Positions 9,044-63,495 of a DNA stretch of 64,000 nt are shown piece after piece. Positions within the stretch are counted from its first letter, which is position 1, and the number at the start of each line of letters is the position of its first letter. Source of the stretch: Laetmonice hystrix (taxonomy: Eukaryota); the NCBI GenBank assembly GCA_965235115.1, contig OZ249450.1:15686001-15750000 (forward strand). Reading direction: 5' to 3'. A program made the position numbers and the translations under genes. Under the pieces are notes generated by a model, which had not been told where the DNA came from, searched no databases, and was given only the letters and a program-made list of their open reading frames with translations.

Positions 9044-9194
9044 GATATAGGGTAGTATATAAAGTATAATAAGGAGGGTTCCTGATTACATTAATGACAT
9101 ACCGGTGGGATCACGGTGGTTGCTCAAGCTGGATCACTGTACACCTGTGCGCTGGACACCTGTAACACATCCAAAACTTGTAATACATATATTT

Positions 9195-31573: not shown

Positions 31574-33721
31574 ATGACGAACAGGGCATACGAGTCTATC
31601 CTTGCCTGCAACAAGTGAGTATTTCTACTCCCCACATACATACTGCTCTGAATGTGGCCCATTTTCATTCTGTGTACATTGGCCTAATACATGTATAATA
31701 ACGAGCCAGATATACCAGCATTGCCCCTATAAAAAACGCAATAATATTATGTGTGGCAGAGAGATGTTCGAGAAGTGTGTGGCGCCAGACGTTTCTTTCA
31801 CCTTACCGACCCACGATGGGCGCACGACGACCGTAAACGCTCACCGTTACATCCTTATTTCTCGAAATCCTGTCTTCCGCGCAATGCTCCTGGGAGCATT
31901 CGACTGTCCAGGCAACGACATACAAGTCTGTGATGTCACGTCGGAGGCTTTTACAGAATTCCTCCGGTAAGACTCCGTTACCACCACCACTTGTAAGAAT
32001 ATACATGGGTATCATTTACTGAAAGTTTCCTTCTCGTCCACTGAGAAGGTGTTTTACTTATTGCTGCAATGTAAATATAGTTTTCTCAGGTAACTCCGGC
32101 TCCCTCCACCACAAAGATTTTATGTTATTACCCGGTTTGGCACACCTGTGATAATAAATGTACCCTATATTCCCACCCAACTAGCCGTGGTCTAGATATG
32201 TCCATGTTAAGTATATAGGGGCCTATATGTTCTCGCGGTGCAGAACGGTCTCGCACAATGCGGTCTAGATGCAAGCAGGGCGTAAAACATCAATCACCAT
32301 AAATTATTTAGACGGAGACACTTTCGCTAAAGCGGGGAGGGTGGGTGGGTATTTCGGGTTCCTTGTAACAGCCAGGGTCATATCTCGACTGACAAACCTT
32401 TCACACATGCAGGCGATGGTCCTAGGTGCCATGAACCAACACCTTAGACCAATCGGCCACCCGAGGCCCCCGCTAAAGCGGGGAACACACCTGATGCGAT
32501 GCGACGCGATTATGAAAAGCTCCTTATGGTTTTCAACGAGTGTGAAGACACCTGAAGCTCCAGCGACATGCAGCTTCAGGTGTTTTCATAATCACACCGC
32601 ATCGCGTCGCATCGCGTCAGGTGTGTTCCCAGCTTCAGGACCCCCATCTCCATGTCTTATCTATTATTTCAACATTACATTTCCACGCTAGGTTTCTCTA
32701 CTACGAGGAAGCATTCCTAAATGAAGACATTATCTGTGAGGTCATTTACGTCGCCAAAAAGTATATGGCAGCACAACTCCTGGACCGATGCGTGGCCTTC
32801 CTTCAGGACAACATAACCGAGCAAAATGCGTGTTTGGTCTTAGAGATGGCTCTTCTTTTTGACCTCGAAGACCTTGAGACCCGGTGTATGCAGATCATAA
32901 GGGCCAAGACAACCGCCATAATACAGGACGAAATGATCGTGCGCATGAACCGCCGGGTTCTAGAACGAATCCTGCAAAGCGACATATTGAACGCCTCGGA
33001 GGTGGAACTCTACAATGCATGCGTAAAATGGGCTACGTTCAAATGTGAACACGAGAAACTTCCGTGCACTTCCGAGAACCTGCGGAACGCCCTTGGCAAC
33101 GCCATGAACCTCATTCGCATACCCACCATACTGCAGGAAAACCCTGGCAACGAATTCTATTTGGAACTACTGAGCCAGTACGAAAGAGACGCTTTACAGG
33201 CTTTCCAGGAGGACCCATCAAATAAGACTATTTTACCTTTTCTGACATCACGGCGGAAGCAAAGGTCGTTGGAACGCATGCGCTGTGGTCTTATCAGTGG
33301 CGTCTCAACGACCTCAGTTCGTGCAGGGACGGTCTCTCAGCATATCTTCACAATAAGTGAGGATATCATCCTTCACTCTATTGACATTCTCGATCGCTGG
33401 AAGTCGCCTACAATGAGCCTCGCCTGCATCATTAATCAAAATGGGAAGAAATGTATCAGTTACAGAATGCGGGTACCGCCAGTCAGGAAGGGTACTGGTC
33501 TTGGGCCTGTTGTTCCAATGTTTCTCCCTGAAACAGGCGTCAAGTTGAAAGCTGGCCAGTTTGAAATCGGCATAACGCATGGCTTTCTTGGAGGGGGCAT
33601 GTATGTTTCGGTTCCTTGTGGCAAGGCTAGATCTGGCACTATTGAGAATTACGGTTTAGACATATCGGTATATGCACCGAATTGTCACCACATTGCTTCC
33701 ATCGAGTTTTCCCTTCTATAA
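31574..33721 (+). CDS. BTB/POZ-BACK domain protein with a PHR-like C-terminus (BTBD1/2/3/6-like), at least 3 exons, at least 425 aa
   Basis: Exons 31574-31614, 31760-31966 and 32692-33721 (phases 2, 2). DVSF...AHRYILISRNPVFRAML...DVTSEAFTEFLRFLY, AKKY...CVAFL...NACLVL, ASEVELYNACVKWA, LRNALGNAMNLIRIPT. The true start may lie further upstream. Confidence 0.85.
32476..32635. mobile_element. Hairpin MITE in the BTB-gene intron
   Basis: aagcggggaacacacctgatgcgatgcgacgcgat ... atcgcgtcgcatcgcgtcaggtgtgttcccagctt; TSD unclear. Confidence 0.55.
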
Positions 33722-38038: not shown

Positions 38039-41000
38039 CTACATGTCTAAGATGCTAGGGGAGAGGGTCCGGCGCCAGAGCGTGATGCCAAGGGCGAGGA
38101 TGATGGAGATGGTGATGAAGCTGGCCCCGACCAGAGACCACGTGGCTCTCTGGTACTCGAGTCGGGGTCGTGGGGTCGGGCCGGGTGTTGTCGTCACTGG
38201 TAACAACAGATACACACTTGACAATCACTGCAGCCAGGCACAGCCGGGCGGGGAGGGAAGGGGGTGGGGTCAACAAGCAAACAGTGAAATGCCCTAATAT
38301 CTTACAGATTTGACAGCTTTTTGCTAACTATAATATACCAATACTTCGAATAAAATACTTATAATGTATATGGGTTCTTATCAACAAAACTACTGCCTTG
38401 ACAACAAATCTCTAAAAAGCACTGAAACTTAGCATATCTTAATAATATGCAAATCATATGCACTTGAGGCAATAGGGTAAAAGTAGCTTAACCATATCTT
38501 ATACTATTTTAAATAACCTACTTTCAATCCTTTTCAAATTTTCATTTCTTAAATAATTACAGGTGTTCATACTTACATGGCCACCAACTAGAGACAGTTG
38601 GGAAGTAGTTCCTCCAAAAGGCGTAATGATTTTGCCGAAAGTTAATATCCATTTCACTGTATTCCATAATGTGGAGGTAGGAGAGATTTGACAAGCTGAA
38701 TGGATACCAGGTGACATTCCTTGTCCATTCTAGTGTCGGGTTTCTGGTGGTCGAAGAAAAAACAGACACTTTGTGCTACTTCATGACTTATGAAATATTA
38801 TGAAAGGTATGCTCTTCAAGTGTTCTGTTACATATTTGTCAAGAAGACTGTAAATAATCAACACTTCTTACCCATATTTAGTAAAGTTGACCCACATGTC
38901 CTGGATGAAAACACTTATGTTACGGTCAAGGTATGTCCAGTCCCACTGGTCAGGTACAATCCCCGTCAGGTTTCCCAGTGTTTCGTTGAAGAAAGGATGA
39001 CCAAAGAGGTAGTCTAAATCTTTATATTGGGGTACACCTGTGTGGACCGAAAATGTAATATTTTTATTTGGTGAACGTTCTAAAAAACACACAAAAGTTT
39101 TTTGACATAGATGCAATTGGTGGCCAGAGTCAACAAACCTTTTCCTTTCTTTCCTCACAACCATTTGTCTTTAGTGAGATAACTTGAGACAATATTATGC
39201 TTATGCAAATAAGACAAGAAGAAACAAAATGTGAAAACTGACCCATCCATTCGGGAAGGATTTCCCATTCCGACCGATGATCAAATATGTACATGTAGAC
39301 AGGTCGGTTGTGGGCTGCATGGTATTTAACGACAGCATCGACACAAGATCCCACCATCTGGTCGGAGTACAACTGAAAACGTATATACCACACATGGACA
39401 TCAGCACACTACACAGAAATGGTTTACAGCACAATTTGTGCACTGTCTACACATGACAGAAATATCATTTTACAAGAACCTGTGGATAGAAATTCTGTGC
39501 TTCCTACAGATTATTAATCTAACTGACTAAGTCACGAGGACAGAAAGCTCCCCAATAGCACCTTATGTTTACTTATTTCAGGTGTTAAGTTTTACTATTT
39601 CATTACTACTAGATGATATATCTGTTTTCAATATTTTTTTCAAAATACTGAAACAATCTTTTCTGAAACACATTACGGTACTACAATGCCAATACATAGA
39701 ACTTTATCAGAGTTATCTAAACCCTTAACACCTACATCAATAAGGTTCTGTCGAACTGCAGTTTTGTTGTCTGGTTTTGACCAGAAGGTGTACTCAAACT
39801 CGACTGCTGACACAGTCTCGTGAGTATTGCGAATGTAGGATTTTTCTCTGATCATCTTGTAGAGGATATCACGGAAGGTGCCTGGATCGAGGCCCTCACT
39901 CATTTTGAGACCAATGATGTCCTTAGTGATGTTTTCTGTAAGAGATAGACTATCAGTCCCAATCCTGAAAACACGCGACAGGCTGCTACCCCCCGTAATC
40001 TTCCGTGTACAAGCCGCAGTCATGTATAAGCCGCACCCCCGTTTTTAGAGCAAAAGTCAGAGGAAAAAAAAATTCACGTTTCTGACGCCAGTCGTAGCAA
40101 AGTTGGGCCCCAACCATCAACCCTACAGGCTGAGACGTGTATCAGCTAGGTGTTTCACCAGCTTGGCCATAGTGTGAAAAGTCGTTGGCCAGACGCCGGT
40201 GCCACCATCACCTCCCATTGTTAAACGGGCCGTTGCTTTCACGGGGCATTGAAAACAATAGGACTCACTTTTATTTTGGGAATCCATCTCACTGTCTTAG
40301 TCAGCAAAGAGTCACACGTAAAACAATGGGTATTAACGGGTTGTGGGTATAAAGCAGGCCAGTTCCCATCAGAAAGGCCTGTCCTTTGTCCCATTCCAAT
40401 GATGATCTTGCCCAGAATCTTTCTCTGTCTATATCTCTCTCTATATGTTTCTTTAAATCTATAACTCTCCATATAACGTTAATACTTTATTCGCAATACC
40501 ACCACTAGGGGTGTAAAAAATTGCGTTGGTGGCGCCACCTAGGGATGACTTGGTCTCCACATAGACGTAGAAGTCTCCAGACGCTTGTGGCCATGTATAA
40601 GCCGCACCCCTGATTTATGATTAATTTGAGGAGGAAAAAAGTGCGGCTTATACACGGAAGATTACGGGTACTTGCTGGTGTACGCTACTCAACGAGTCGC
40701 GAGTGTCCAACATTCTTATATGAACACAGTGACCATCACATACCACACTACCCTGGAGTGGGTTACTTCATTATAACCACGTTATTATTATGTCATTCAG
40801 TGTGACAAGAACATCCATCTCATTCTTACCAGCTAGGTATGACCCTTCATCCTTGGTGAACCCAGCCAGAATGTCAATCTTCATGAACTGGTTTTTGTCT
40901 CGGAGGGCCTTGGGGTCGCCAGGAAGGACAGGTCTCGGGACAAAGTCATCCACTACTGGGGAAAATGGACCGGCTAGGGACCCATACTGTAAATAAATAA

Positions 41001-43878
41001 GTATTGTTTCAAAAAACAATAAATGTGTTATGGATTCTTCCAAATAATAACACTGGCACTCTTAAAAACTTTTTTATATTGGCTCCAGAAAGCTATATAC
41101 ATGTAGCAGTAAAAAAAATGTTAAGGAACACAACATGGAAAATACAACACATAAAAAGAAAGTTCAGGCTTGACTGGTAATACATATTTGTGACACAATC
41201 AAACAAAACGATATTGGCCATATAATGACTTCAAGCATATAAAAATTCTTTAAAAAGCTATATGAGGCAGGATACCCCAGTTCTATTCCCTCACAGAAAG
41301 CAAATTAAGTTCTTTGTTCCCATGAATTTGAGATTTGTTCTTACGTGTTTGTACATTGAGGCAGTTGCATTGACTATTTCTTCAAAGTGCTTTTTCCGCA
41401 GACAGTCAACAAGGTTTTCCAAAGGTAGTCCCCAGTCTGGGTTACATCCAACATGCCGACCCAGGTCCTTTGCGTATTCCCTGGCATTGGAATTATAAAC
41501 ACCTTTCACAACCGACCACTCACACAGGTCCGACCCAGCCATCATTATGGCTCGGTGAAACAACTGACGACCTGTAAAAAAAAACAGTAAATAAACAACA
41601 GTGTAATGTACCAGGGTAAACCTTTCAAATCAAGTAGATTCATGTGCAATAACCTTGGATTTTAAAACTTTTGTGATTTCAAGATTAACTTTAAATGTCT
41701 TACATAAGACAAACAATAAAGCATAGATAAGAAGAAATGTAATGATTCTGTCCATCTAGATTTACTGGTATCACACCTGTGATAGTACCTTGCAGAAATT
41801 AAAGGACATGTGTAAATGAAGATACGCACCATTTTCTTTAGACAACGGAGAAAGCAAGAGAAGGCCAACGATACTGGCCCCTGACCCATGACCGAGAATG
41901 GTAACTTTGTTAGGGTCTCCTCCGAACACAGGCTTGACGTAAGTTTGTATCCACTCAAGGAGTTTCAACACATCCCGTAAACCATAATTGCCAGGCGAGT
42001 TGGAGTCCAGAGTGGACAGAAAGCCTGGAAAAAATATTACTCTTTTCAGAATTTTTAATGTAGCAATGAGAAAATAATCTCCTCTCAGTTAGATATGTTT
42101 AGATATGTAAGATAAACCTCTCCGTTTGAGTCATTAATAAAATGTTGATTACAAAAATATTAAAAGTGAGAGGTTGGTTTTCTTGTTGGTAATGGACATT
42201 TTAGCAGCATGGTTCTGCCTAAAAATTGTGATATCTCACCAAGGGCTCCAAGACGGTAGTTGAATGTGATAACAAGGAGCTCCTTCTTGGCCAGGATGTG
42301 GCCTGGGTACATCTGAGAGTCGCCCAGTTTGTAGTCGTCACCATGGATAAACACAAGGACATCCCAGTCACGGTTTGTTGACTCAGGTCTATCAGTTAGC
42401 TATAGACAAACAATTGTTCCATGTCAAATCAACCAGATTAGGAAAATCTTTGAGGGTGGTCATCTGTGTATCTGAAGTACATTTTGTAAAATTTGTCCTC
42501 AAAATTCCCTCTTCCTGAGTTACAAGCCATTGGTAAAAGAGCTTCTTATTACAAACCACTGATAAAAGAACTTCTTATTCTAAGCTATTCTTGGATAGCT
42601 GCCTCCAGAAACAGTAAAGCTGGCAACTTATATTTCTTCCCACATAAACTTCCATATGCACCAACTACAGAAAAGCAATAAATTAGTAGATCCTTTCTTA
42701 AAAGTTTTTTCCTGCTTTTAATTTCTGGTAAATTAGCATGCCATCAAATCATTTGAACATTTGTAACCAGGTTTTCTGGTGGAAAACTGAAATGAGCAGA
42801 GCAAGAAATAAAGATTACTTCTCATGAAATGAGCAGAGCAAAAAATAACGATCACTTATAATTCTCATCACTACATGCATGTAGTCATTCACCAATTTTC
42901 AAAAACAAGTATAAAGCTATACTCTCTCGATTTTCTCACTTGAAAAGTCATCTTTAATTAATATGTGGACGTACGTTAGGCTGAAAGACATTCATATGGA
43001 GACAGTCTTCACTCTGGTTCCGGATCTCGTAGAACATTTTGTCTAGTTTCCAAATTTCTTGCGGGCATGCTGGACGGTAGAAGGAGGCATCCCACTCGCA
43101 CTGACCGATGTCCCAACACGGTCCTGGATCCTCGGGTGGCTGGGTTTTAGGCAAACACAGTGAATGACTATCAAGTTGTAATTGGGGCCGTTGCCATGGA
43201 TTGGCAACAGAGGTCGACACCTGCTTATATAATATAACCCCCTCCTTCATTATGTCCCTTGGAGGTCCCAGGCAGGGGAGATGCTTAAAATGCCAATCAA
43301 ACACCATACGTTTCCCATTACAGCATCTATGCAAGTTACAGCTGTCCCACTATTCGGTTATATCTTAAATTATTACTGTATTTATTCCTTGTGCCACACC
43401 TGATAGCACTGATGTTGGCATGCAGTACTATGGTTAGGAAATCCCTCTGACAGTGGGGAATCCCGCCCTCTGACGACCTGACCCAGTTTCTTAACTTACC
43501 TGAGAAAGGCGGGCAGCCTTTGATGTTTTTATTAAACAACTTGGAGCCTACCTTAAATCGTAACTCCCCAACTGGTGGTCGAGCGTAGGGCACACCCAGG
43601 AAGATATTAATGTAGCGATAGGGCATGTAAATAAGCGACCGCCCAATAATTTCCCCGATGTCACCAACTTGGCGACGGATTTGATCGTACGGGTAGAACG
43701 GTGGCTCCCAGCACGGATACGGCGAGTTGGGGTCGCACCATGGCCTGTCCTTGTTTCCTGGCCACCGGCTCGAGTCCCACTGGTTTGCCCCATTCAGAGG
43801 TTGCTGGCTCACGACGACAGCAGCCAGTGCCAGCAGTAACCATACTAGAAGTGTCTTTCTCCACCATATCGCCATCAC
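38039..43878 (-). CDS. Non-catalytic cholinesterase-like (neuroligin-type) single-pass membrane protein, 11 exons, ~683 aa
   Basis: Exons 43878-43552, 43139-42975, 42399-42240, 42024-41830, 41571-41345, 40986-40830, 39935-39736, 39372-39243, 39037-38872, 38743-38577 and 38196-38039; phase-compatible, sum 2052 nt. Signal peptide, FLGVPYARPPVG, SEDCL, NYRLG, FGGDPNKVTILGHGSGA (nucleophile Ser replaced by Gly), GVPQY (His replaced by Gln), TM segment ATWSLVGASFITISIILALGITLW. Confidence 0.87.
39989..40668. mobile_element. Tc1/mariner(pogo)-like non-autonomous element with TA flanks
   Basis: ccgtaatcttccgtgtacaagccgca ... tgcggcttatacacggaagattacgg; ta on both flanks. Confidence 0.6.
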
Positions 43879-44880
43879 AACTTAATCCCGGTCCTCTCCG
43901 TATTACAGGAGCAGGGCTCGAACTTTGCACTCCATGTTTTCATGCCGCTTTGCAGGTGCGCGTCTGTACGGGGGTCACATGATGTTTACCTGGATGGTTG
44001 GCCAATAGCACGCGCTCTCCTGCTGCCGCTATTTCCTTTGGTGTTAACTTGGGAAGCGCCAGAATAGCGTTGTCTGGAATACTAATTTGTGTCATAAGGC
44101 GCCAGATTTAGCAGTCTTTCTTTTTCAACCAATCTAATTTTAGAGCGTAGGAGGCGTCAATTTCTTTAATTTTCCTGTAAAACGTGATTATATTAAGTCC
44201 ATTCCATTTTCGACCTTGACCGTCTTCTTTTGTAACCACTTTCTTAGTTTTGTCCAATATTTCTGCAAACAACAGTGATCAGAGATATCTATTGCAATCA
44301 TATATGACCCTGGTTTTACTTATGTTATTGGAATTTGTGAATATATGTTATCTATAATTGTTGCGGTTGTAGTAATTATTGTAGGACCTAATAATTGAGC
44401 AGATAGTATATATATTCGCATCTAAAAACCTTTGGACAACTTTCTCATTTTAAAAATTAGCGAGATTTATATTAAACATACGTCATATACATTGTACTTA
44501 CAAACAAGATTTTATTGGGTACTCGTCATGGAACACAAGGCACCCAACTTACACACGCACCAGCACGGCACGTCTCTCCGATATATTCTCTTAAATTCTC
44601 TCCCTATCTCTCCTCTCGGCTTACTCTCCCCTCCTCCCTCGCCCGTGGCCCAGCTTGCTGGGATCGAAGATATATCTTTGGGCTTTATTGAAATGCACCT
44701 CAGCCTGCCAATAAAGCCCAAAGATATCATTGAAAACCTCGCTGGAGCCAGGTGCGAGGTTTTTATTGAAACACTCACTCTCTCCCCATCCAGACTACAC
44801 TAGTCCAAAAGGCGTCTTTGGTAAAGATATCCTTGGCAAAGATATCTTTTGATATTGAAACACACTGGTTCCCCTCCCCG

Positions 44881-45663: not shown

Positions 45664-48174
45664 CCTGGTTGTCACTATCGCTACCATGTGTTGGGGTGGT
45701 ACATGTATTTGTAAAATGCTTGCGGAGGTTTCTTGATGAAATAACTTGTTCTCTCGACTGACATTTACTACCAGTACATGTATGTCATTGTGTAGTTAAT
45801 TCGCTGGTCAACAGTATTTTTAGTGCACATGCACCAGACCACCTCGGTAGCAACCTTAATTCGACTTTATTTGTAAACATCGACATCAATAAAGGCATAA
45901 CAAGAATATGTTTAAGAAACATACAGAAATATTTACCATTAGCAATAACATCTAACGCATACATATGACTTGGCAAATAGGCGCACTATACTAAACAAGT
46001 AGAACCAGCAAATATGATGATAAAGAAAGAACTGAAGCTAAAACTCAGGCACAAACGTTTCTTTCATCGATAATAATGAACAATTGTCCTAAGGCGCTAC
46101 CACAATCTCCCTCTCAGTGAATAGGGTCGGCACCTGACAAGATGATTGGGGCGTGGAGGAGGGCTAGGCTCGCCTTTCTATTATTTTTTTGTTGCTTCCC
46201 ACCTCCTCGGAAATATTAGGTGCGCCCCTGCCGGGACCGTCAAAACGTACACGTTAAATATCCCTACAACTACTTAACTGTGTACTTCAAACTGTATTGA
46301 AACTATTAATTAAGACACTTCCTTATCCATACACACTGTATACTATACACCTGGATCTCCGTTTGTGCAAATAACTGCGCCTATGTCTGGGGCAATGAGA
46401 AGCAAAAAGATGGGGACATATCACAAAACACTCACATACATCCTTTCGTTAAATCAAATCAATATTTCCTTGGTGTATATATTTACAACTCACACAAATC
46501 CGTTTCATTATCCAATTTTTCCAACTCAAATAAACTGTTGATTTAAAGAAAAAAACGGAAACCTAATTAAAGATATACACATGTATTTGTAATTAAAAAG
46601 CTATAAATCGACAAGACATGGCCTGTATTATCAACTGGTTGGAGTCGACAGACCGTAGTAGGAGAAGTATTTTAACGACTTTGTTTTCGCGGATGACCAT
46701 CTCATCAGTGCTGATCTGAAGGGTCTGATCCACCGGTTCACACGGCCGGTCGACCGTTGTTTTTTTTTCTCTCAGTCAAATGGGGTCTGAATTTTGTTAT
46801 GACGCGGCCGGCCGGCGGTACATCCGGTCACCTGACACGGCCGACGCAATAAGGCATTTCTCGGCGAATGCCTCGAATCCGTTCTCGTTCTTCATCCGTC
46901 TTGGAGACGGGTGAGATTTGAATATTTTCAACAGAAGAAGGGTACAGAGCATCGGGAGGGGGGGGGGGGGGGGGCTTGTCAAAAATTTACCCCTTGACGG
47001 CCGCCCAGTCACCCGGTCAAATCAAACATTTTTGGAGATCCGATTTTTGGCCTTGGCTGTTAAACGTCTCTGACTAAACTGAGCTTTTTTTTCGTTGGTG
47101 AAAAAAAATGCAACTTTGATAATGTATCACAAAAGATGAACGATAAACCATTAGTTTCGTGACAATTTGTTGTATCTGTAAGTTAAAAGATAAACAGGTG
47201 TTTTCCTGAGGAACGTGCTCTCAAATTCTTGGAACCGAGTTTGCATTGACCAAAGAAAGCTGATTGTGACACACTGATACAGCTCATCATAACGTGAATT
47301 TGTCAGCACCGTAATGTACCAATGAAGTCGGTGAATTCACGTACCTGTGCCTTGCCCCAACACACACCCTGATCTACACAACGGCACCGTAATGTACTAA
47401 TGAAGTCGGTGAATTCACGTACCTGTAGCTTTGCCCCAACACACACCCTGTTCTATAAGACGACTCCGCACTTGCCAGATGGACCGTTTGACTCATTATA
47501 TTTTTTTTGTAGGCCCAGTATAGACAACAGTCCGAGAAACACCAATGGTAAACTGTAGCTTCTGCGTGAAGTGTTTTGAGTGAACTCACAACTCACCCTC
47601 CACCATCTGTGCGCTGTTAAATCTTCCTCCCTCCGAAAATGACTAAAGATATCAAGATATAGCCGTTATCATATCTTAACAATACCACAACTGTCTAAAA
47701 TATAGCTTTCATGGTTCTGAATATGTTCAAATTCGTAATGCGCTCTGGATTTACACCATATCTGAGAACGAATTTGGAACATGAACAAAGGAAGCATAGA
47801 GTGGCTTCAGCAATAACCAAGTAAGATTTTATTTTATATACATCTTCCCACCCTCTCTTCGCCTCAATATACGTGTAAGTATTCAGAGCCATGAAGGCTA
47901 ATTCTAAAAAAGTGTTTACATTATTTACCGTCCTGCTGACAAACATATTTATATTTTTATACTTTAAATTTGGTATATCCTACATTGTGAGAAAGGCTAC
48001 TGGTCTACCCACCCTCATTTCATTGTCATTATAGAAAATATATTGGGGAGACTTATGGGAAATCTATATATAGTTGCTGCCAAATCTGCTGTGAGGTTTT
48101 CCAGTCATATGCAGATCAATATGTGGTCACGGCGACGTGAAAGGCAAGCCAGGGATACGACCAGGGCCCAGCAC

Positions 48175-48575
48175 TGTCCTCCGTCCCCTACAACTGTCCC
48201 AGGAGGTCGTCGGTGTCCCCCGTCCCCTACAACTGTCCCAGGAGGTCGTCGGTGTCCTCCGTCCCCTACAACTGTCCCAGGAGGTCGTCGGTGTCCTCTG
48301 TCCCCTACAACTGTCCCAGGAGGTCGTCGGTGTCCTCCGTCCCCTACAACTGTCCCAGGAGGTCGTCGGTGTCCTCCGTCCCCTACAACTGTCCCAGGAG
48401 GTCGTCGGTGTCCTCCGTCCCCTACAACTGTCCCAGGAGGTCGCCGGTGTCCTCCGTCCCCTACAACTGTCCCAGGAGGTCGTCGGTGTCCTCCGTCCCC
48501 TACAACTGTCCCAGGAGGTCGTCGGTGTCCTCCGTCCCCTACAACTGTCCCAGGAGGTCGTCAGTGTCCTCCGTC
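48175..48575 (-). repeat. 39-bp tandem = last codons plus stop of Ku80 ([12 protein letters not shown]), 10 copies including the coding one
   Basis: TAG codons spaced exactly 39 bp apart from 48539 to 48188 (9 x 39 = 351). Confidence 0.93.
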
Positions 48576-51500
48576 GGGCCATCGTCTCCAGTGTCCTCCT
48601 GCTGCATGCCCTCCTCCACCCGGGTGAACTTCTCAGCCTGCTGTTTGGTGACGGTGCTCTCCTCACACTCCGTTTTGGTTATCAGGCTGAGTTTCTCTGG
48701 GAAAAGTAACAGATTCGATAATTACCCACTTTATTGTCACACAACATTATACTTGACAATAAGCAGGAAGCTTAGAATTCTTTTCGACTTCCTTGAAAAG
48801 CAAGCTGTAAATGTGTATTTGTACAGATTTTAACATGTCAAAAGCTTGTTGAAGTGATTTTAAATTGACACCCGTGAAATCGTCTAGGAACAATTGTGTT
48901 GATGCTCACCTTCACAGAGCTGTTCCACGAAATCCTTACGACCTTTTGCAATGACTGACTCCTTTAATCTTCGCAGGAAATCATTGAACATTTTCGGTTC
49001 ACTGTTCTGTAGGCACGACAAACAATATATTATACGGTGTAGTAATATAGGGTTAGAGGTATATACACGTATATTAAGTGTATTTGTCATGTACCAATAG
49101 GATTAAAAGTGGTCTGTGTAGTGTAACCTCAAGCCCTGATCCTCCTATAATAATTGGACTTAATAAGCTACAGAATCGTTTGCACAGCACATCGCATACA
49201 TTGTTCACCTGGATAGACTTTTACTTCAAATTTCCAGACTTTTCATCTGGCCATATTTTATCTTTCATGTTAAACAAACAGGCTGCAGGCTGACTGGTGT
49301 CTGCTGGGGACGGGGCTTTTCCTTTCGTTCTCACTGCTAGCCTGGCTTAGTCTGGAGAGAACAGCTCTCCGACTGCTACTCAGTCGGGTCCATTATCAAT
49401 GTCAACGCTATGTCAACACTAGTCCGCATTTCTTTAAAATACAGCAGACCCATAATAAATTATAAATGGTATTCATAAGGAAGAATTGATTCAACACTTT
49501 ACCTTCATGCACTGTTCCCGAAGAGCACGGAGACAATCAATGGCTTTGGTGTAAAATTGACTTCCGAATGAGTCGGTGATGATCTGTTCTATCCTGGTCT
49601 GCATCATTTCACAGGCTGCAAGCACATAAACCAACCTTGCATGAATATGTATCTGACACAAACCGTACGATAACAAGGGATTGTATGAAGGATTGTAACC
49701 ACAAGTAGGAAAATTATAATTTGTTATAAAATACAATGTATAGCCACTCTGAAAAGGAAATACTTTTCCATTTACCTTCGTCAAAGTGATCTTCATCTTT
49801 CTGCCCAATGATGGCTAGGAAATCATCGATAGGTTTGACTGTACCAACCTGCAATACCCAAAGAAAGATTTTGGACTTTTGCAAGTACATGTCTACCCAC
49901 ACGTCTGTAGTACCCAAGGTCTATAATTCTGAAATATTTCTAACTTCGGCAAATCATGCGATACTTTTCAGTGTTGGCAGTACTCTATCCTGGAATATTC
50001 AAGACACTTTATCTTCATGAAATACTACAAGGCATGAAACCAGGGATGCAAAACTGCTCTCAAAAACTGGAACGCTGAAAGCCCTTTTCCCTGATTTCTA
50101 AGTAGAGCTACCTCAGTGACGCGACTCTTCACCAGGTCTGCAACTCCTCCTTTAAGATCATCATCCAGTTTGGCACTTTTCGCAGATGGCCCTTCCCCCG
50201 ACTTGTCACTAGAGTTAAAGAAAATAGATCAACTTACTATCAGTATGAGTGTGAGAAAACTTATTACATGCTGGTATATTACATCTTATGATCTAGTAGC
50301 CCCCATATATACTAGAGCCAATTTCTTTAGCGCTAATATTCCACAAAAAGTTCAGTTTTGTCTGACCCGTATAAACCACCTACTTATCCTGAAACATGTT
50401 CTGGCCTGTCTGTTCCTCCTTCCTTTTTAGTACTTCTGTTAGTTTGAACATCTTCGACATTTTTTCAGTAACTGGCTCCGACCTGGAACAATGCAAAGAA
50501 AGGATCAGTTTTCCTGATGCACCTACAACATTTTACTTCGGTTATATGTTGGGCCATCTCTGAATGAATATGTAGAAAAAGGAAATGAAGTGACACTATC
50601 ATTTACTGGCATAATATCCTTCAAAATAGATATGGCATGTCTTCTAACAGGCCCCACAGATGGCGCTTGAGAAGACAAACTTCAAGATGGTTCTCAAGAT
50701 AGTGTCTATGTTTTATTGATTGTGATTTTCGGTTTGTAGGTCACAAAAACATACATTGTATCTGATTGACATTGTAAGTGTTCATCCACACATTCAGGAA
50801 CACGTAGGGAGTTAAACAAAAAATTTGCTATATCAGATGCCGTTATTCTCTTGCTATAAACTGTGGCCGACATATACTGACCTTATGACATGTTTGGACT
50901 AACCTTGTCTGAACTTCCTGAGGAGGTTTCAGGTAGTTAGCGACCACTGGGGATAATTCTGGCAGCGGATCGTCTGGGTTCATATGCCGATGTTGTATGC
51001 ACTGAAGGCAATAGTAAAAAATACAACATTCACTTTCATGTCTGCATGGTCTGCAGTTTAAGCAAGGTTCAGGTAAAATAAAATGATAACGCCCAGGTGT
51101 AGTGACTGGAGCGATAGTTTGTTTCGATGTTGAAACAGATCAGATGGTATTCTCTGCAGACACAAGCAAATTTAGGGAACATAATATATGTATGTAAAGG
51201 TAATGTGTGATTCCAAGAGAAATGCGATTTGGAAGCCAAAACTGGCAACCTTCAACTTGAGATTCTGTTTCAGTTCAGGGCCTGCTGGCATCTTTTGACT
51301 TTTAAAGTTTTACTACAAACTTTTTCAGAAGTGGACTATATACCTGGTAAAGACGCTGTAAAAAGGGGTTGAAGGTGTACTTAGGCTTGAGGACTTCATC
51401 GCCATCTCCGCTGTCCCGGATTAAAAAAAAAGTCTAAATCAAGACGACAGGTCATAAATACAGAAAACTTTAATTATAAACACCCATGCAGATGTTCCTG

Positions 51501-54500
51501 TATGCCGATGGCACAGCTTCAGTGGCATTACATCTCTGATCTTCATGGATTCACAGGTGAAGCCAATGACACTTCTCAAACCATGTGCTATGACAGACAC
51601 AAGGCTTGCAGTACAATAAGGATGTAACTTCTTACTTGGTATTTGTGAGGTCCATCGTATCGATAAGCTCATCCATAGCAGCCAGTTGTTCATCTAAAAA
51701 AACAAATGAACTTTATTTCTTCACCTGTGCAGCCTCAACCAATTTTAATAATTTTCTCCTTAAATGTACTCCCTATACATGCTTCGAAAAGAAATCTCAA
51801 AATGAAATCTACCTGTAGGTTGGAATTTTTTGTTGAGTGTTGTGACATTTTCTGAGACAGGTAAAGATCCAAATGTAAATTGTCGGATATCTTCTGCAAA
51901 TGGCAACTCATTGTAGAACAAACACTGAAAAAAATACAAAAGCCATTAAATATACAGATAAATCATCGATTGACCTCTCCATCTGAAGAATTTACCATTG
52001 CATATAGTTTTACTGCCTCTTTAAGTTGATAAATTTCAGTTGATAAATTTAAGTCAATAAATTTAAGTCAATAAATTTGAATGCTGAAGGATAGATATAA
52101 TATAAACCTCCCTTACAATAAGGGTTATAACGATATTACGCAGAACATTTTTAAATCCAGATTTCCAGAGGGTTGCTGACTTTTATCTAGTTTTTAAGGA
52201 AACTAATGAAAGATCTACTGCTTTTTTCTCACCTCATATTTAGCTTTAATGTGAGGTACCAGTACACCAATTCGTGGAGAGGCCGCTGCACTATAGCACC
52301 GCCGAACAATGATTGCCATATTTGTCTGATAGAGTGCGTTAACGAGGGCAGAGAGAGCGATGGCTGCCGCCTCGTCACCCTTCTCAGCTGTCACAACCAT
52401 GCAGTAGTCTCCCATAAAATGCTGCCGCCGGATCTTGCAAGTACCATCAGATATTGTTTACATAGCTTCTATGCTAATTTTTATTTCAACTTGTGTTAAG
52501 TTCAGCTTGACTTGAACCAATTTTCTATTCAGTAAAGAATTTGCAATTCGAGAAAAACTGAATTATTAAGCAGTATTTGATAGAAGTGATAATCTACGTG
52601 GTGAAAACCAATCTGTGTAATGATACTTACATTCTCGTTTTTTGTGAATCCCAACACCTTAAAACACTTCTCTGACCGATATTTCATGGCCTCCTTATCT
52701 TCCGCTGAGAATGGCACTAAAGTGCTGCCATAACGGTGACCTTTTATGGAAGAAATGGACCTGGTAATTATTCTTGAGTTTGAGTTTCTTGCCTGAATCA
52801 AATCTAATCGTCCACTTTTCATCAACTCTGAGTGCACAGAGTATCTTTTGTGGTAAATTCAGCTTTCATAACGAACATATCATTATGCATCTATCTACCA
52901 ACCCTTTCACTCTATATATGTATACATGTTATGTTCAGATATTTACAGTCCATAGTTTTGGTAAAAACGAAATTAAAAAGTTAAAAAAGTAATTTCTGTA
53001 CCTTCTACAGTTTCTGAAAGATCAACTTCTGTTTCTGCCTCATCATTCAAGTGATTTGTCCTCAGACGTTGCACCTCTGCCTCCATATCCTTGGCAAATA
53101 CATTCTTGAATGACTTGGGCCTGGCTTCTTTTACCTAAAATTAAAGAACGACTTGGATGTCAAGTATTTTCATGCTCAGTTCGTTTCAAAATTGTACTCA
53201 GAACATAAATTTAAATTTGATTCACGCAATTTACAAAGCATACCGGTAAAAATAATTTGGTTTGGTGTCTAAATTTCACATTATTCCAAACTAACAAGCT
53301 TCAAGTTCCAAGGCAACTTCAAATCTCAAACTAAGGAAACGATTAGTTTATGTGTCAAATATAGCTTCACTTGACCAGCCAATGAGAAGTCTTAGTTTCA
53401 CTTGACTGGCCAATGATGTTTCACTTGACCAACCAATGAGAAGTCTTAGTTTCACTTGACCAGCCAATGAGATATCTTAGTTTCACCTGACCAGCCAATG
53501 AGAAGTCTTAGTTTCACTTGACCAGCCAATGAGAAGTCTTAGTTTCACTTGACCAACCAATGAGAAGTCTTAGTTTCACTTGACCAGCCAATGAGAAGTC
53601 TTAGTTTCACTTGACCAACCAATGAGAAGTCTTAGTTTCACTTGACCAGCCAATGAGAAGTCTTAGTTCCACTTGACCAGCTAATGAGAAGTCTTAGTTT
53701 CACTTGACCAGCCAATGAGAAGTCTTTTAACAAGGTCTGAGTTACATGTTTAAGATCCGTAATTTTTGTGAACTAAAAACCAGGCCCAGAGGTAACAAAC
53801 TGTGTCAATATCAGAGTGTTGCAACTCAACCAGTTCCAATAATTGGTGACAATCTGCTCAACAAATGTACGTGTTATAACATGCATGAAGAATGCTGTTT
53901 TTATTACCAGTATTCGGAGGGATGAGAAGGAATTTTTTTTAAACACCCTGTATAAGAGAATCTACATCAACTTTTAGCCTGATGATTGGCTGGTTCACTA
54001 TTTGGTTCCATCTTTAATATCTACTATGTGACTTTGACGAGATTTTTATTGACTTTTTCTGGTTGGTGTTTGCCCACCTTTATGTAGCCTGAGATGGGGA
54101 TTCGGAGGCTGCTTCCTATTTCCAGCTGACATTTCCAGGGCATTGGTCGGACTGCCCGACTCTGGAAGAAACTCAGCGCAGGTAAGGCCTCACTGTAACA
54201 CAAAGTACACGTAAGTTATGTTGTCAGCCCATTTCCAATAATGCCAGGATTGTTATTTGGCTGTCAATTCCCCCCCCCCGAATTCCTGTGTTTTGGAGAT
54301 TCCTTTTTTTTTTTTTACAAATTCCCTGTGTTTTCCCTGCAGGGAACTTTTTTGACTATCTTCCCTGTTTCCCCTGTGCCGTGGTCACCTTTTCTCTATG
54401 TGATGTAGTCACTTACTCAAATGAGTAGCTTTCTCCATTGACCAGTTCGATCATGTGACGGAGCAAGGCCTCTCCTGCCATTTGCTGTGCCGTCTTGGCC

Positions 54501-57490
54501 TTAACACGATTACTGGTAGCAGCCCCTGAGGCTGACGGAGCACTGCCATCATCATCATTGCTGTCATCATCAAGGTTGGGGCCACTGGAATAATGGAGGA
54601 CAATCACAAATCAGGGACATATCTGTATCAAACTTAGATAGGGTACCCCAATAGGGTACCCGTACCAGCATGCGGCACTACCAGTTTAACACATTATTTG
54701 TAGTGATAAATCATCGGTAAACAAATGTTTGTTGAGGTTGACACCCTTCACAAGGATTTGGTTTAGTTAGGTTAGATTTAAGGCCTTCAAGACTACATAA
54801 ATCAATAATTGTTGACAAAATCGTTGACCTGGTATTGATTTTGTAGTCATTGAAATCAGGGATACTCGGTGATTGCTTTAATCATATCACACACAGTGGC
54901 CACCTGAGAAAATTCCAAATTTGCTCAACACACTCCGAGTCTGACCCCTTCGTTGCTAATAGTAAAGCGTCTTTTGAGCATTCCTCAGGAGGTTTGTAGT
55001 AGGGTGCTACAGAAATGAAAAATGGTCTATAGCTAAAACATGTACGTGTATTGCATCACACAAATAAATACAAAACTTACACAACATTGAGCTCAATCTC
55101 TGCTTCCTTCATGCTAGCTACAATGTCTTCCAGCTGGTCATCACGAAATTCTCCTCCGATGTCTGAGAATAGTATAAGACGTTTCGATGCAAACCCTCGC
55201 TTTCCCCTGATAGAGAGACAAAGATGTAACAGTTAAAATTTACTGAATTAGTACCAAATGGCCATTTTACAACATTTAACGCTGTTCATTGCAATGAAAA
55301 AATCCACAATACGAACTCCCGAAACCAACATGGTATTGGTTTTCCTAATTTCCATGGGCAACTGTTTCAAAATGTGATTTGTTTAATCAATACAAGTCTT
55401 CCATGATGAACCACATTGAATGTCTCCGAGTCCTATAAGAATCATAAACTAATCAGTCTGGAATTAACCGTCATTTTGCAGCATATAGTATGCTTTATCT
55501 TCTTCATTCTAATGTTTTCAAATGACACCAATGCCAAGAAAAGTCAAAGACAAGTGAATATATGACATGCAAAATCATAACTCCATTACTCTTACTTTGC
55601 AAATGCTGAACTCCCTTACTGAGAAAACTACTTGGCATACCAGTACTTTTATAAAAGTTTGCAGAAATAAGTTTGGGTTTAAGTCTTTTCCCTGATTACT
55701 CGTATAGCAAAGTGAACATGGTAAAGTTACAAGACTGCGATCATTCCTTGGTTCATCGTGTCAGTTTATGAGTTAGTCATGGAGTGGTAATGTGCATTTG
55801 ATGTTTATAAAAGGTAGAAGCCTAAAGAAATCACTATACAAATGTTTACAAACACAAAAGAGTTGGCTAAACAAGACTTTTCAGGTGGAGTAAATTTACG
55901 TAAAATTGCAACACTGAGTACTGGTACATTGCTTGATTTTGCTCTCACATTGAAACTTCCTTCCAAAATGACTACTGGGTAGTAGTTTGTAAATAATACC
56001 CACTGGCAGGGTATCAACAGTAATGGTCATATCATATACAAAATAATTTTCTTTTGTAAAAGAACTCACTCAAGGTTCTTGACGAGATGATCCATTGCAA
56101 CAACGATGGCATCAAGAACTAAAACTAGGTCAAGGGCATACCTAAATTATTTGGTGTCTTCATGTGGATAACTGTTACCCATCTATTACTAATGTAAAAT
56201 TAATTAGAATCTTTATCTACTGGCACTTGCTGTATAACTGCAAAGATAAAGGATACAGTCTCCGGCCACGTTGCTGGGCTGGACGTCATTCTGGATGTAC
56301 TCAATGAGATCCCAAGTGACGACCCCAAGAGATTTGGCCACAGTGATGTTTTCATAGCTGCCGCCGTCGGCGAGGTCATTTGCAGTGTTGGCTGTCCCAA
56401 AGAGCACTAGGGCTACTTCGTCCTTTGACTCAGCAAACAACTGTACCATCACAATCAAGGAAAGGTCATCACTTGGAATCAACAGGTTATAACAGGATGA
56501 AATTGGTTTAAATATCTATAATAATGGATTGCTGAAATTGTAAGTAATGTTTACGTTTAAATCTCCTCTTCCTATTAGTTTCATTATGATAGACTTACTT
56601 TGTAGATGAAAGTCAGCATACCAATGTCCCTCTTGTTAAAGTCACCTTTGAGGTGTTTTAAAATATGTAATAGCAGTAGTACTGCACATTGACGTCTGAA
56701 TTTCCTATCATTTCCATCATTCATAGTACACTGTACATGTATGTGGTTGTTTTCAACAGTTCTAGAGATAAAAATCATGGCAAATTTTATGACCTTGAGC
56801 GAAACATATGGAATTTACTGAATCATTATAAATAGAAAATGGTACCAGAAAGTGTGTTCAGTTTGTGAGGTATACGGATTAAAGAAGCATGGATTAACGA
56901 GGTCTAACTGTACATGTTTGAGTGCCTACCTTGCGCTGCAAAATCATATTGATGGCAGCAGTCGATGCCTGAAGGTATGTTTGTTCCCCTGGTGGTGCTT
57001 GGTTCATTGATGGACCAATGTCAAGCACAATGGCAATACCTTCCTGAAATTCAATGTATCACTGTGTATGACAGATTGACCCTCTATCAAATCGCCACCC
57101 GGTATTTCATCTATTATCGCCCACAGACACTGCGTTTACGTATCGAGTTATTGACGTTTCCTAAGGTTGTCAGTGGTGTATATCGATGTCTGTTTGGAAT
57201 CGGATGTACTAAAGAGCCTTTATTTACTGGCGGATCACCTTGACGAGTTTAATACGGAGGATTTAACAACGCTGAAACATCCGTCCAGAAGAAAATGTCG
57301 ACTTGTCAATCGTCTTTCGAGCCGGCAGTTGTTTCTGAGCCATTTACGTTATCAATTATAAAATTATCAACTTAAAGATATTGCTATATAACCGAAGAGC
57401 TACTAATTTATCCCTGTTTATCAGTACTAAGAAAGACAAATAACCAAGTAATCTTTTATCGATAAATTTGCTTACCTTGTTGTAAGCCAT
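48539..57490 (-). CDS. XRCC5: Ku80 (X-ray repair cross-complementing 5), ~20 exons
   Basis: MAYNK (57490-57476), [13 protein letters not shown] (57043-56930), [16 protein letters not shown] (56440-56257), [12 protein letters not shown] (56118-56070), KRLILFSD (55206-55081); later exons read [22 protein letters not shown]...IVRRCY...[62 protein letters not shown]; last exon 48696-48539 KLSLITKTE...AEKF...[10 protein letters not shown]. All are collinear with vertebrate Ku80. Middle exon boundaries were not all resolved. Confidence 0.95.
53366..53725. repeat. 31-bp intronic minisatellite (ccagccaatgagaagtcttagtttcacttga), 12 units, 11 with CCAAT
   Basis: CCAAT at 53379, 53410, 53433, 53464, 53495, 53526, 53557, 53588, 53619, 53650 and 53712. 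Confidence 0.9.
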
Positions 57491-59837: not shown

Positions 59838-60460
59838 ATTGAAGATGATTTTGGTGTCTAGATGTAGGTTTTTGTGTATGTGGAATCTAATAAAGGAAGA
59901 AAAATTAAAGTTGGACCACTCCTTTCCCACCTAAATCCAAGATGGCCGCCAAGATGGCCGCGATCAGGGGCAATTTTGAAAAAGTCCCATAACTTCTCAA
60001 CCAATTCACTTAGGAAGATGATTCTGGTGTCTAGATATAGGTTTTTGGGTACGTAGAATCTAATGGAGCAAGAGAATTTGAAGTTGGACCACTCCTTTCC
60101 CACCTAAATCCAAGATGGCCGCTAAAATGGCCGCAATCGGGGATAATTTTGAAAAAAAAAGTCCTATAACTTCTCAACCAATTCACTTAGAAAGATGATT
60201 CTGGTGTCTAGATATGGTTTTTGGATATGTAGAATCTAATTGAGAAAGAAAAATTGGAGTTGGGCCACTCCTTTCCTACCTAAATCCAAGATGGCCGCCA
60301 TCTTGGATAATTTTGAAAAAGTTCTCTCTTCTCAACAAATTCACTTAGGAAGATGATATTGGTGCTAGATATAGGTTTTTGGGCATGTGGAATCTAATGG
60401 AGAAAGAAAAATTGAAGTTGGACCACTCCTTTCCCACCTAAATCCAAGATGGCCGCCAAG
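59838..60460 (-). repeat. ~173-bp tandem array (~3.6 units), inverted relative to 62545-63495
   Basis: cctaaatccaagatggccgcc recurs at ~59930, 60103, 60279 and 60438. Confidence 0.85.
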
Positions 60461-60639
60461 ATTTAGTCATCTCTACATGTCAAGTACTGTGTCTTGAGCT
60501 AAACCAGCCACTGTATACGTGCTCATATACCTCATCAAGGCCCTTCATCTGGTAAGCTGGGATGGGCTGTTTAAAATTCTACCCCCCTCCCAACTGGGCA
60601 AAGTCGAACTGGGCAAAAAAAGGCACAGCAACAGATACC

Positions 60640-61140
60640 TTCACCAAAACTGAAAGAACGGGTCTGGAACTACTGGAAACTGTCAATGACAACAAGAATG
60701 AAGGTCTGTCAAGTCTGCGTACGAAGCACCACCTCTATGGGAGTGAAAACTGGACACTTTATCAACACATCATGAACAATCATTCACTTATGTCTATCCT
60801 ATGCCTGAAGACCATACTCCATATCATGGAAGAAAAACTAAAACCGATGTTCTCAACATGCCAAAATGCCATCAATACTCACTATACGTTAAAACAATGA
60901 AGACTTCGTTGGACTGGTCATGGGTGTCTGCAGAATGACAGATGGGAGGATCCAGAAAAAAAACATTATGTACGGGGAACTAGCGGAAGGCAAATGGCAA
61001 ATTGGGAGACCCCATCAAAGCTACAAGGGTCTGGTCAAGAGAGATCTCAGCTGTTTAACATCAACTGCAAAATATGGGAGACAACAGCAGAATCTAACTC
61101 AATGGCGACATGCACCCTTCACCGGCAGCAAACAGTGCGA
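60640..61140 (+). pseudogene. RTE-clade LINE 3' fragment, degraded
   Basis: LYGSENWTLY, then LRWTGH...MTDGRIQKKNIMYGELAEGKWQIGRPHQSYKGLVKRDL; frameshifted. Confidence 0.7.
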
Positions 61141-61470
61141 AGAAAGCCTCCAGGTGGCTTCATATACGACTTCAGTCAACATCATCATCATCATCCTCAG
61201 CCTCTCCTTCATGCACCTGCTTTGTCCACACATTTAAACACATTAGACCTGCATGGAATGCACAGAGCACAGTGCATGGTATAGGTTAAAGCTATGGCAA
61301 CCTCATCCATGTGTTCTGCATGGTGCTTCACTCTCACAAGAACATTTTAGTATTTTGAGCAAGTCCACAGGGGTAAGTGGCTTGTCAGGAAACAGTTGTG
61401 AAAGACAGACATGTAGAGATGACTAAATTTTAGGTTGCCTTTGATTTTTGTGTTGGCTTGTGGTCCTTAA

Positions 61471-62338
61471 AGGGGCATATTATGAGGAAACGTGACAAAT
61501 CGGTATTTTAAAGAACTTTTGCTGTTTTCATAAAGAGATCCTTCATTAAAATTGCTTGGTAAACAAAGACAGACTTATCAGTTTCATTTTGCGTGAGAAA
61601 TCAAAGTTTATGAAGCTCCCTTGCCCGCTTCTCTGCCGATTTACTAAAAATATTTTTTGGGTGGCATTTTGATGCCAGTCGATCGAGTGCAACTGCTGAA
61701 TTGTTTACAACTAAGCGAAGCACGTGACTAAGCACATGCAGAGAGTGCACACACAGGATGTGACACAGTATGCAATTACACGGGTTGATGGGGGGTTGTC
61801 CGCCAAATTATGGCGGGAGATTACTATCGGGAGAAATCTATAGGTTTGGTTGCATAGAACCTACTGGTGCTGCATACGCAGTGAAAACACGTCGGAGGAC
61901 AAAATGCTGTGGTAGGATTATTTGCTTGGATCCCTAGTACACGGTCATCTTGGATAATTGCCGGGAATCCTCCAAAACGTGTTCCATAGCATGCCCCTTT
62001 AATTAGCAAGCGAATATAATTCTGAATATAACTGTATTAACATTGTGCACATAGTACTAGAAAAAATTCCTACCGATACCATTGGCCTGATAAACCTTCT
62101 ATTAGTTTGTGTGCAGCATTTGAAACCTATCTCGGTGCGCACCGAGATAGAGCCATTTCCTATGGTGGGGCGTGCCATGGTCTCCACAGGCGTTCTGAGA
62201 GAGCCACATTTGTGCCGTTATCCATGAAAAATTTTGATTTCCTTTGTTGTGAATCTATTTCCATGATAGGTGGGATCACATAAACGTCAACAAAATTAAA
62301 AATAAAAAAACTGAACTTTTTTTTCACGAATAGCACCT
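61471..62338. mobile_element. Possible Kolobok-like non-autonomous element
   Basis: ttaa|aggggcatattatga ... tcacgaatagcacct|ttaa: TTAA flanks, AGG termini, imperfect TIR. Confidence 0.45.
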
Positions 62339-62544
62339 TTAAACTGAAAATAAGATGCATTTGACTCATGTTATTCCATAGTTACCTGAACATGGCATTT
62401 CCTCCAACACTTTCGTGGGAATGTTTCTACAGCGGCCATCAATTGTAATGAGAGAGATAGAGAGCGAGGAAGAGGGATAGAGAGCGAGAGATCTTACCAA
62501 GGAATAGTCCATTCTTAATTTTTTTTCCTCCACTGGATTCCACG

Positions 62545-63495
62545 TCTTCGAAAACCTATATGAATAGCGGCCATCTTGGCGGCCATCTTGGATTTAGGTG
62601 GGAAAGGAGTGGTCCTACTGTAATTTTTTCTTTCTCCATTAGATTCCACATGCCCCAAAACCTATATCTAGACACCAATATCATCTTCCTAAGTGAATTT
62701 GTTGAGAAGATTATAAGACTTTCAAAATTATACCCGATGGCGGCCATCTTGGCGTCCATCTTGGATTTAGGTAGGAAAAGAGTGGCTCAACTTTAGTTTT
62801 TCTTTCTCCATTAGATTCTACGTGCCCAAAAACCTATATTTAGACACCAAAAGATTCTACGTGCCCAAAAACCTATATTTAGACACCAAAATCATCTTCC
62901 TAAGTTAATTGGTTGCGAAGTTATGGGACTTTTTAAAAATTATCCCTGATGGTGGCCATCTTGGCGGCCATCTTGGATTTACGTAGCAAAGGAGTGGTCC
63001 AACTTCAATTTTTCTTTCTCAATTAGATTCTACATACCCAAAAACCACATCTAGACACCAAAATCATCTTCCTAAGTGAATTGATTGAAAAGTTATAGGA
63101 CTTTTTTTTCAAAATTATCCCCGATTGCGGCCATTTCAGCGGCCATCTTGGATTTAGGTGGGAAAGGAGTGGTCCAACTTCAAATTCTCTCGCTCCATTA
63201 GATTCTACGTACCCAAAAACCTATATCTAGACACCAGAATCATCTTCCTAAGTGAATTGGTTGAGAAGTTATGGGACTTTTTCAAAATTACCCCTGATCG
63301 CGGCCATCTTGGCGGCCATCTTGGATTTAGGTGGGAAAGGAGTGGTCCAACTTTAATTTTTCTTCCTTTATTAGATTCCACATACCCAAAAACCTACATC
63401 TAGACACCAAAATCATCTTCCTAGGTCAATTAGTTGAGAAGTTATAGGACTTTTTCAAAATTATCCGCCATCTTGGCGGCCATCTTGGATTTTTT
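62545..63495 (+). repeat. ~173-bp tandem array (~5.5 units)
   Basis: gccatcttggattt recurs at ~62587, 62760, 62972, 63147, 63320 and 63484; one unit has a 38-bp internal duplication. Confidence 0.85.

Follow-up and report, generated by a model that had tools for sequence, protein, structure and literature searches.

The extreme C-terminus of Ku80 is a PIKK-interaction motif that binds DNA-PKcs (available text of PMC4433226, PMC9006396, PMC9935390 and PMC8224183). In lancelets, the so-called mirage arrays leave the mRNA normal, according to the accessible portion of PMC3087553. The type III readthrough signal, as described in the available part of PMC13517186, is composed of a UAGGGV hexamer, an 8-nt spacer with G1, G2, G5, U6, C7, and A8, and an H-type pseudoknot at +12. 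In the open-access literature, no report was found on the Ku80 locus described here or on readthrough of Ku80. This locus lies in a 64-kb stretch of Laetmonice hystrix DNA (the window), to which all coordinates refer.

The Ku80 (XRCC5) coding span occupies 48539..57490 on the minus strand, from the ATG at 57490 to the first TAG at 48541-48539; the ATG and the first exon were taken from the DNA sequence, not from RNA. The Pfam domains Ku_N, Ku, and Ku_PK_bind match on all five exons tested, and 17 tblastn segments at the locus cover residues 5-734 of a snail Ku80. These two lines of evidence agree with the assignment to Ku80 in the first-pass annotation. A genome-wide search with one exon returned one locus, and the gene is intact and single-copy. 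The last 11 exons are joined in one spliced contig and contain no internal stops. The coding part of the last exon (48539..48696, minus strand; junction 48910>48696) begins at 48696, as had been claimed, and comprises the end of Ku_PK_bind (PF08785, E=7e-5), an acidic linker, and the terminal motif. The last intron (48697..48909, minus strand) is a GT..AG intron of 213 nt in phase 1. Its donor, previously placed at 48912, had to be moved: the upstream exon ends at 48910, and the donor GT is at 48909-48908. It should be mentioned that molluscan proteins are the nearest named matches to this Ku80, and that a protein of a close relative (P0001) matches one exon at 93%.

At the end of this gene, TRF detected an array at 48175-48575 (minus strand) with a period of 39, 10.3 copies, 98% matches, and 0% indels, which as a repeat is far beyond chance. 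Copy-by-copy reading agreed with TRF and bore out the earlier description of ten near-identical, in-frame 39-bp units, every one closed by TAG. The first unit is the genuine end of the Ku80 CDS: copy 1 (48539..48577, minus strand) consists of the last 12 codons and the functional TAG. The copies share one frame because the period is divisible by three, and each contains a stop because the stop sits inside the copied unit. Copy 1 differs from the other copies in one synonymous base and in its first two bases. Copies 2-10 (48188..48538, minus strand) lie beyond the stop, likely in the 3′UTR, and retain all their TAGs. They carry three substitutions in 351 bp (0.85%), namely D>G in copy 4, a synonymous change in copy 8, and E>G in copy 10, and are otherwise alike. 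A partial 11th unit of 13 nt (48175..48187, minus strand) follows, and its last 11 nt are identical to the start of copy 1. This match is likely the seed homology, or simply the ragged end of the array. The 25-nt core of the unit has ten matches in the 627-Mb genome, all of them in the array, and the control gave none; the only other DNA match to the unit, at 69%, comes from a 42-bp array with no relation to it. The unit is thus derived from local sequence, not from a dispersed family.

Copy 1 was also compared with known Ku80 tails. It shows an acidic stretch followed by DDLLxxL at the very C-terminus, as had been recognized in the first-pass annotation, and could be aligned, weakly (E=0.29), to the tail of human Ku80 in 6zh6_B. 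By homology, it is a putative DNA-PKcs-binding motif of the ordinary form, like the molluscan TTDDLLMEL and SADDLLDQL. The motif ends within two residues of the C-terminus in 108 of 172 Ku80-like proteins, a set that includes 59 in which the motif pattern had no match, being partial models or having divergent tails, and five with non-terminal chance matches only. A repeated tail was seen in none of the 172, although predicted proteins end at the first stop, so that readthrough forms would be invisible among them. Unless readthrough occurs, no difference exists at the protein level.

One sequencing run (X4) was treated as RNA because its Ku80 contig is spliced at ten GT-AG joints and the adjacent intron has zero depth. 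The contig has the normal last exon and a frame open to the first TAG. It continues into the array, and the unit junction is present in the same run. This means that the array is likely in the 3′UTR, with copies 2-10 untranslated, in accordance with the fallback reading of a 3′-UTR VNTR. The first AATAAA downstream of the array (47828..47833, minus strand) is a candidate poly(A) signal. The Ku80 protein likely terminates at the first TAG and has a single, normal motif for DNA-PKcs binding.

Very probably, then, the array is a young, locus-born 39-bp minisatellite lying across the last 12 codons and TAG of Ku80, whose extra copies are likely untranslated. With 10.3 head-to-tail units of 39 bp at 98% identity, it falls within the 10-100 bp range of VNTR units. 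The first step might have been a head-to-tail duplication spanning the stop, perhaps by slippage between the 11-nt match on either side; the second copy would then have been amplified via slippage or unequal exchange. Such an array would have survived because a duplication across the stop does not alter the first copy, nor, consequently, the protein. Contigs of the sample vary among themselves at 43 sites over 4762 bp (0.9%). The divergence of copies 2-10 is close to this value, and the array is therefore young or recently homogenised. Two of the three changes are non-synonymous, against 24/39 expected without selection (p=1.0, with very low power). This suggests no sign of coding constraint in copies 2-10, though three substitutions are too few to prove neutrality.

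The genomic background is rich in similar arrays, defined as having a period of 15-100, at least five copies, and at least 85% match. Sampling of 33 stretches, 330 kb in total, gave 20 of them, or 60.6 per Mb; the window has seven, one of which is in a Ku80 intron. This density corresponds to approximately 38,000 arrays in the genome. Owing to it, 24-103 genes are expected by chance to have a seed unit that spans the stop; the unit would be in frame in 8-34 of them, and in 2-9 it would also include 30 nt or more of CDS. These values assume 15,000-25,000 genes and uniform placement. Among 15 loci of the LSM family in the genome, none could be recognized as LSM11, and the matched LSM coding stretches carried no array. 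Against the minisatellite reading, the unit coincides almost exactly with the functional motif plus the stop and looks designed. Out of about 38,000 arrays, however, it is cases of this sort that catch a reader's attention. The UAG-GGG context, which fits the type III hexamer, also speaks against it.

This context leads to the possibility that the first TAG undergoes programmed readthrough of a type III-like kind, so that a minor form of Ku80 would carry two DNA-PKcs-binding motifs or, rarely, three. If so, DNA-PK recruitment or end synapsis would change. We regard it as very unlikely. UAGGGG does match the UAGGGV hexamer (available part of PMC13517186), so that the likeness to gammaretroviral signals noticed at first holds to this extent. 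In addition, the array is present in the transcript, adjacent units fold on each other with the inner TAGs placed in a stem, and DNA-PKcs is encoded in the genome (PF20500; 13 exon matches, one cluster on C1). However, the type III context is described in the same source as weak without downstream structure. The spacer, GGGACGGA, matches three of the six functionally tested bases (G1, G2, and A8, but not G5, U6, or C7). The proposed GGAGG/CCUCC stem fails on several points: its pairing probability in the ensemble was 0.0, and it starts 5 nt, not 8 nt, past the stop. Nor does any pseudoknot beat the shuffles: the best H-type pseudoknot had 5+4 pairs in a simple pair-count search that uses no pseudoknot energy model, and 135 of 200 shuffled units were equal or better. 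Folds of the array gave z values of -1.4 to -1.6, with 16-17 of 200 shuffles as good. Furthermore, readthrough of 5% per stop was computed to give three motifs in 0.25% and ten motifs in 2e-12 of products. A single TAG mutation, said earlier to produce a multivalent tail, would give two motif copies and not ten, since the next unit stops again. An inner copy may also bind less well, because the motif is terminal in most of the relatives counted above.

It is highly improbable that the array is kept for an effect on the RNA, as a GC-rich 3′UTR insert of 364 nt tuning the stability or translation of Ku80 mRNA by its copy number. The array is transcribed, and it would make up about half of the 3′UTR if the latter ended near the AATAAA at 47833; in humans, a VNTR in the XRCC5 promoter is reported to alter expression (available text of PMC4829605). 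Nevertheless, the array folds no better than its shuffles, and an incidental effect on RNA is not the same as a selected function.

Supply of alternative last exons by the AGs of the array is scarcely credible. Each unit offers three AGs, and a phase-0 donor upstream (49502) joined to ttgtag would be in frame with the end of a unit, but this route would drop two helical-bundle exons. Splicing from the donor at 48909 to any of the three AGs shifts the frame and loses the motif, because the last intron is in phase 1 and the unit AGs are all in phase 0. The T fraction before the array AGs is 0.1-0.2 (0.20 before ttgtag, the acceptor originally suggested), compared with 0.45-0.65 in all ten real Ku80 acceptors, and pyrimidines make up 0.3-0.5 compared with 0.5-0.8. 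The predicted junction from the last-intron donor into the array did not appear: among the ten joints listed in the spliced run, none enters or passes copy 1, copies 2-10 being outside the stretch compared and contigs being prone to drop rare splice forms.

The refutation foreseen at first, namely an artefact of assembly or an array length that is badly wrong, is almost certainly incorrect: although the read evidence is contigs from one sample, possibly the assembly source, which cannot fix the exact copy number and whose summed overlaps make depth unusable for it, the unit-to-unit junction occurs in all four runs, the bin holding the unit has 2-4.6 times the flanking depth in each, three copies bear private substitutions, and both flanks are unique.

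On the minisatellite reading, the most likely one, the array matters little: it is one more minisatellite among the approximately 38,000, probably ordinary and harmless and not a new form of Ku80. It is a neat example of duplications across a stop codon, which are tolerated because the protein is left intact. It also provides material that one mutation could turn into a repeated C-terminal motif, and at Ku80 it can lead gene prediction and variant calling astray. Should readthrough or a stop-loss allele be demonstrated, the locus would offer a natural way to test whether a free C-terminus is required by the Ku80 motif and whether two motifs alter DNA-PK synapsis.

Among known systems, the human XRCC5 promoter VNTR (PMC4829605, in its available part) is in the same gene, but it lies in the promoter, has an unrelated unit, and is of independent origin. 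The MoMLV gag-pol type III signal shares with the Ku80 array UAG followed by GGG and purine-rich bases after the stop (accessible portions of PMC13517186 and PMC4178896). It differs in its H-type pseudoknot at +12, which has no supported counterpart here, and in the spacer, of which the Ku80 array matches half the tested bases. Moreover, gag-pol readthrough adds an enzyme, whereas that of Ku80 would add 12 residues up to the next stop. The amphioxus mirage minisatellites at Adh3 and the globin genes BflGb6/BflGb9 belong to a different phylum. As far as the available text of PMC3087553 describes them, they span exon-intron boundaries, whereas the Ku80 unit spans a stop codon inside the last exon, and their length polymorphism has been shown, whereas the Ku80 array is known from one sample. 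In both cases, however, the arrays are locus-born, head-to-tail copies of the gene's own functional boundary, the copy at that boundary is distinct from the inner ones, which are homogenised, and the mRNA is spliced normally. The Ku80 array works like a mirage but is not classed as one.

The gene is identified as Ku80 by Pfam matches (Ku_N, Ku and Ku_PK_bind) in all five exons tested and by 17 tblastn segments covering residues 5 to 734 of a snail Ku80. One exon used as a query had a single match in the 627-Mb genome; the nearest named proteins were molluscan, at 64-67% on that exon. Molluscan Ku80 proteins end in TTDDLLMEL, SADDLLDQL and similar sequences, which means that DTDDLLGQL followed by the stop is an ordinary Ku80 terminus. 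PDB 6zh6_B, which contains the human tail, aligned weakly with the last exon (E=0.29). DNA-PKcs is encoded in the genome (13 exon matches in a single cluster). The neighbouring genes on the downstream side of Ku80 are a BTB/BACK gene (31578-33718, plus strand) and a secreted carboxylesterase/neuroligin-like gene (38871-43881, minus strand).

The last exon of Ku80 starts at 48696 on the minus strand, as indicated by the sequence and by the splice joint 48910>48696 in X4, one of four read runs. In the sequence, the first stop TAG occupies 48541-48539 on the same strand and is followed directly by nine further 39-bp units and 13 nt of an eleventh (TRF: 48175-48575, period 39, 10.3 copies, 98% matches). 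The first-pass annotation described this array correctly throughout, apart from the upstream donor, which the X4 joint places at 48909, not 48912. A genome-wide search found the unit only at the Ku80 locus. Three of the 351 bases in copies 2-10 depart from the consensus of these copies: copy 4 carries D>G, copy 8 a synonymous change and copy 10 E>G. A single synonymous base is peculiar to copy 1, and the TAG is intact in all ten units. Since the expected number of stop losses from three changes is only 0.15, the intact TAGs are uninformative. Two of the three substitutions change a residue, against 24 of 39 possible transitions (p=1.0, with low power). Divergence among the copies (0.85%) resembles the density of variant sites among the contigs of the sample (43 in 4762 bp, 0.9%), which suggests that the array is young or recently homogenised.

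A doubled Ku80 tail, produced by readthrough or by a stop-loss allele, is very improbable. The proposed likeness to gammaretroviral signals holds for the hexamer: UAG GGG fits the type III pattern UAGGGV, a context which is weak in the absence of downstream structure (PMC13517186). Readthrough in MoMLV requires both pseudoknot stems after an 8-nt spacer (PMC4178896); behind the Ku80 stop, three of the six MoMLV spacer bases tested matched. The suggested GGAGG/CCUCC stem does not form in the predicted ensemble (pairing probability 0.0), GGAGG beginning 5 nt past the stop. The best H-type pseudoknot found in the unit, of 5+4 pairs, was equalled in 135 of 200 shuffled units by a simple pair count, and folds of three array stretches gave z values of -1.4 to -1.6. 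Basal readthrough in mammalian cells is given as 0.01-0.1% in PMC4615788, with a value of 1-2% at UAG from a single reporter study and +4 G not favoured. Because each additional motif needs a further readthrough, 5% per stop would give two motifs at 5%, three at 0.25% and ten at 2e-12. A single TAG mutation, proposed to create a multivalent tail, would yield two motifs only. An open-access literature search found no paper on this locus or on Ku80 readthrough.

Among 172 Ku80-like proteins (22 from earlier matches and the best 150 of 4165), the motif lies at most two residues from the C-terminus in 108; 59 had no match to the motif pattern and five had non-terminal chance matches only. No tandem motif copy was found in this set, a protein-level survey blind to DNA behind the stop. 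In two predicted members from other genomes, P0117 and P0141, the C-terminus consists of translated tandem repeats that bear no relation to the motif; these tails are probably gene models extending into minisatellites.

The four runs covering the stretch come from one sample and one study, and none is recorded as RNA. Their contigs were compared over 48539-53300, which contains copy 1 only, and give no copy number for the array. X4 was taken as RNA because its 1084-nt contig is spliced at ten GT-AG joints. Ku80 transcripts likely continue into the array: this contig extends 6 letters beyond the TAG, a loose end is identical to the unit-to-unit junction, and depth reaches 52.3 where the bin includes the unit, compared with 25.7 for the contig and 0 in the adjacent intron bin. 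The 11 joined exons give 390 codons with zero internal stops, and the first downstream AATAAA, at 47833, lies about 340 nt beyond the array. The other three runs contain the junction and show excess depth at the unit (299.5 vs 64.5, 135.6 vs 55.5 and 94.9 vs 27). This speaks against an array created purely by the assembly, although coming from the same sample these runs give no independent support. It should be mentioned that the X4 contig differs from the window and the other runs at 48947 and 48955 in the second-last exon (on the sense strand, one silent A>G and one V>I). The likely cause is an allele missing from the other contigs, or a different individual; editing is improbable because one change is G>A. 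The short intronic stretches 50706-50739 and 49085-49313, where depth is raised and loose ends are numerous, are dispersed repeats.

The array AGs were rejected as a regular splice route: the last intron is in phase 1 and all three AGs of the unit close a codon in the motif frame, so that joining 48909 to the proposed ttgtag acceptor yields a product without the motif, the frame being restored only from phase-0 donors further upstream with loss of at least two exons of the C-terminal bundle, and the T fraction in the preceding 20 nt is 0.1-0.2, against 0.45-0.65 in all ten confirmed acceptors.

The array is real and ordinary. A sample of 33 stretches, each of 10 kb and taken from 15 large contigs, contained 20 arrays (period 15-100, at least 5 copies, at least 85% match), that is, 60.6 per Mb (95% interval 37-94) and 4.2% of the DNA, or about 38,000 when extrapolated to the genome; the period was divisible by 3 in four of the 20. 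The window contains seven by the same definition, one within a Ku80 intron. Assuming 15,000-25,000 genes and uniform placement, a seed unit across the stop is expected in 24-103 genes, in frame in 8-34 (5-21 with the observed 4/20), and in frame with at least 30 nt of CDS in 2-9. Such duplications would not be purged, because the protein stays unchanged. The Ku80 array is one expected draw among them, and it seems meaningful because the last residues of Ku80 are a known motif.

Other repeats were also observed. A second Ku80 minisatellite (53362-53726, 31 bp x 12, intronic) has a CCAAT-like box in every unit. The second DNA match of the unit search, on contig C3, contains at 1436-1771 an unrelated array (42-bp x 8, 98% identical) that belongs to the same size and age class as the Ku80 array. 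In the 17883-18040 / 18315-18915 region of the window, a minus-strand gene has an intron filled by a 46-bp x 13 array, which ends a few bases short of the next exon, and an array of 40-bp x 4 stops where another exon apparently begins; the host gene of the former is complement factor B/C2-like, its Sushi, EGF-like and vWA exons preceding protease-like ones. Three long intronless minus-strand ORFs at 2730-9085 (555, 381 and 748 aa), the first containing a 48-bp in-frame array (3642-4196), had no Pfam match at 1e-3 and look like a mobile element. The region 59841-63466, upstream of where Ku80 starts, contains large repeats of 158-212 bp with GCGGCCATCTTG cores, interspersed in direct and inverted orientation; they are likely a non-autonomous DNA element family.

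We consider it highly probable that a 39-bp segment across the Ku80 stop was duplicated head to tail, that the second copy was amplified through slippage or unequal exchange, and that translation ends at the first TAG, as the readthrough and acceptor tests suggest. The duplication might have used an 11-nt match at both array ends, which may be a mere ragged end. The closest known kind is the 'mirage' minisatellites of lancelets, which copy exon-intron boundaries, homogenise their inner copies and vary in length while splicing remains normal (PMC3087553). The Ku80 array behaves similarly; however, its unit spans a stop codon, whereas mirages span exon-intron boundaries, and for this reason it is not classed as one.
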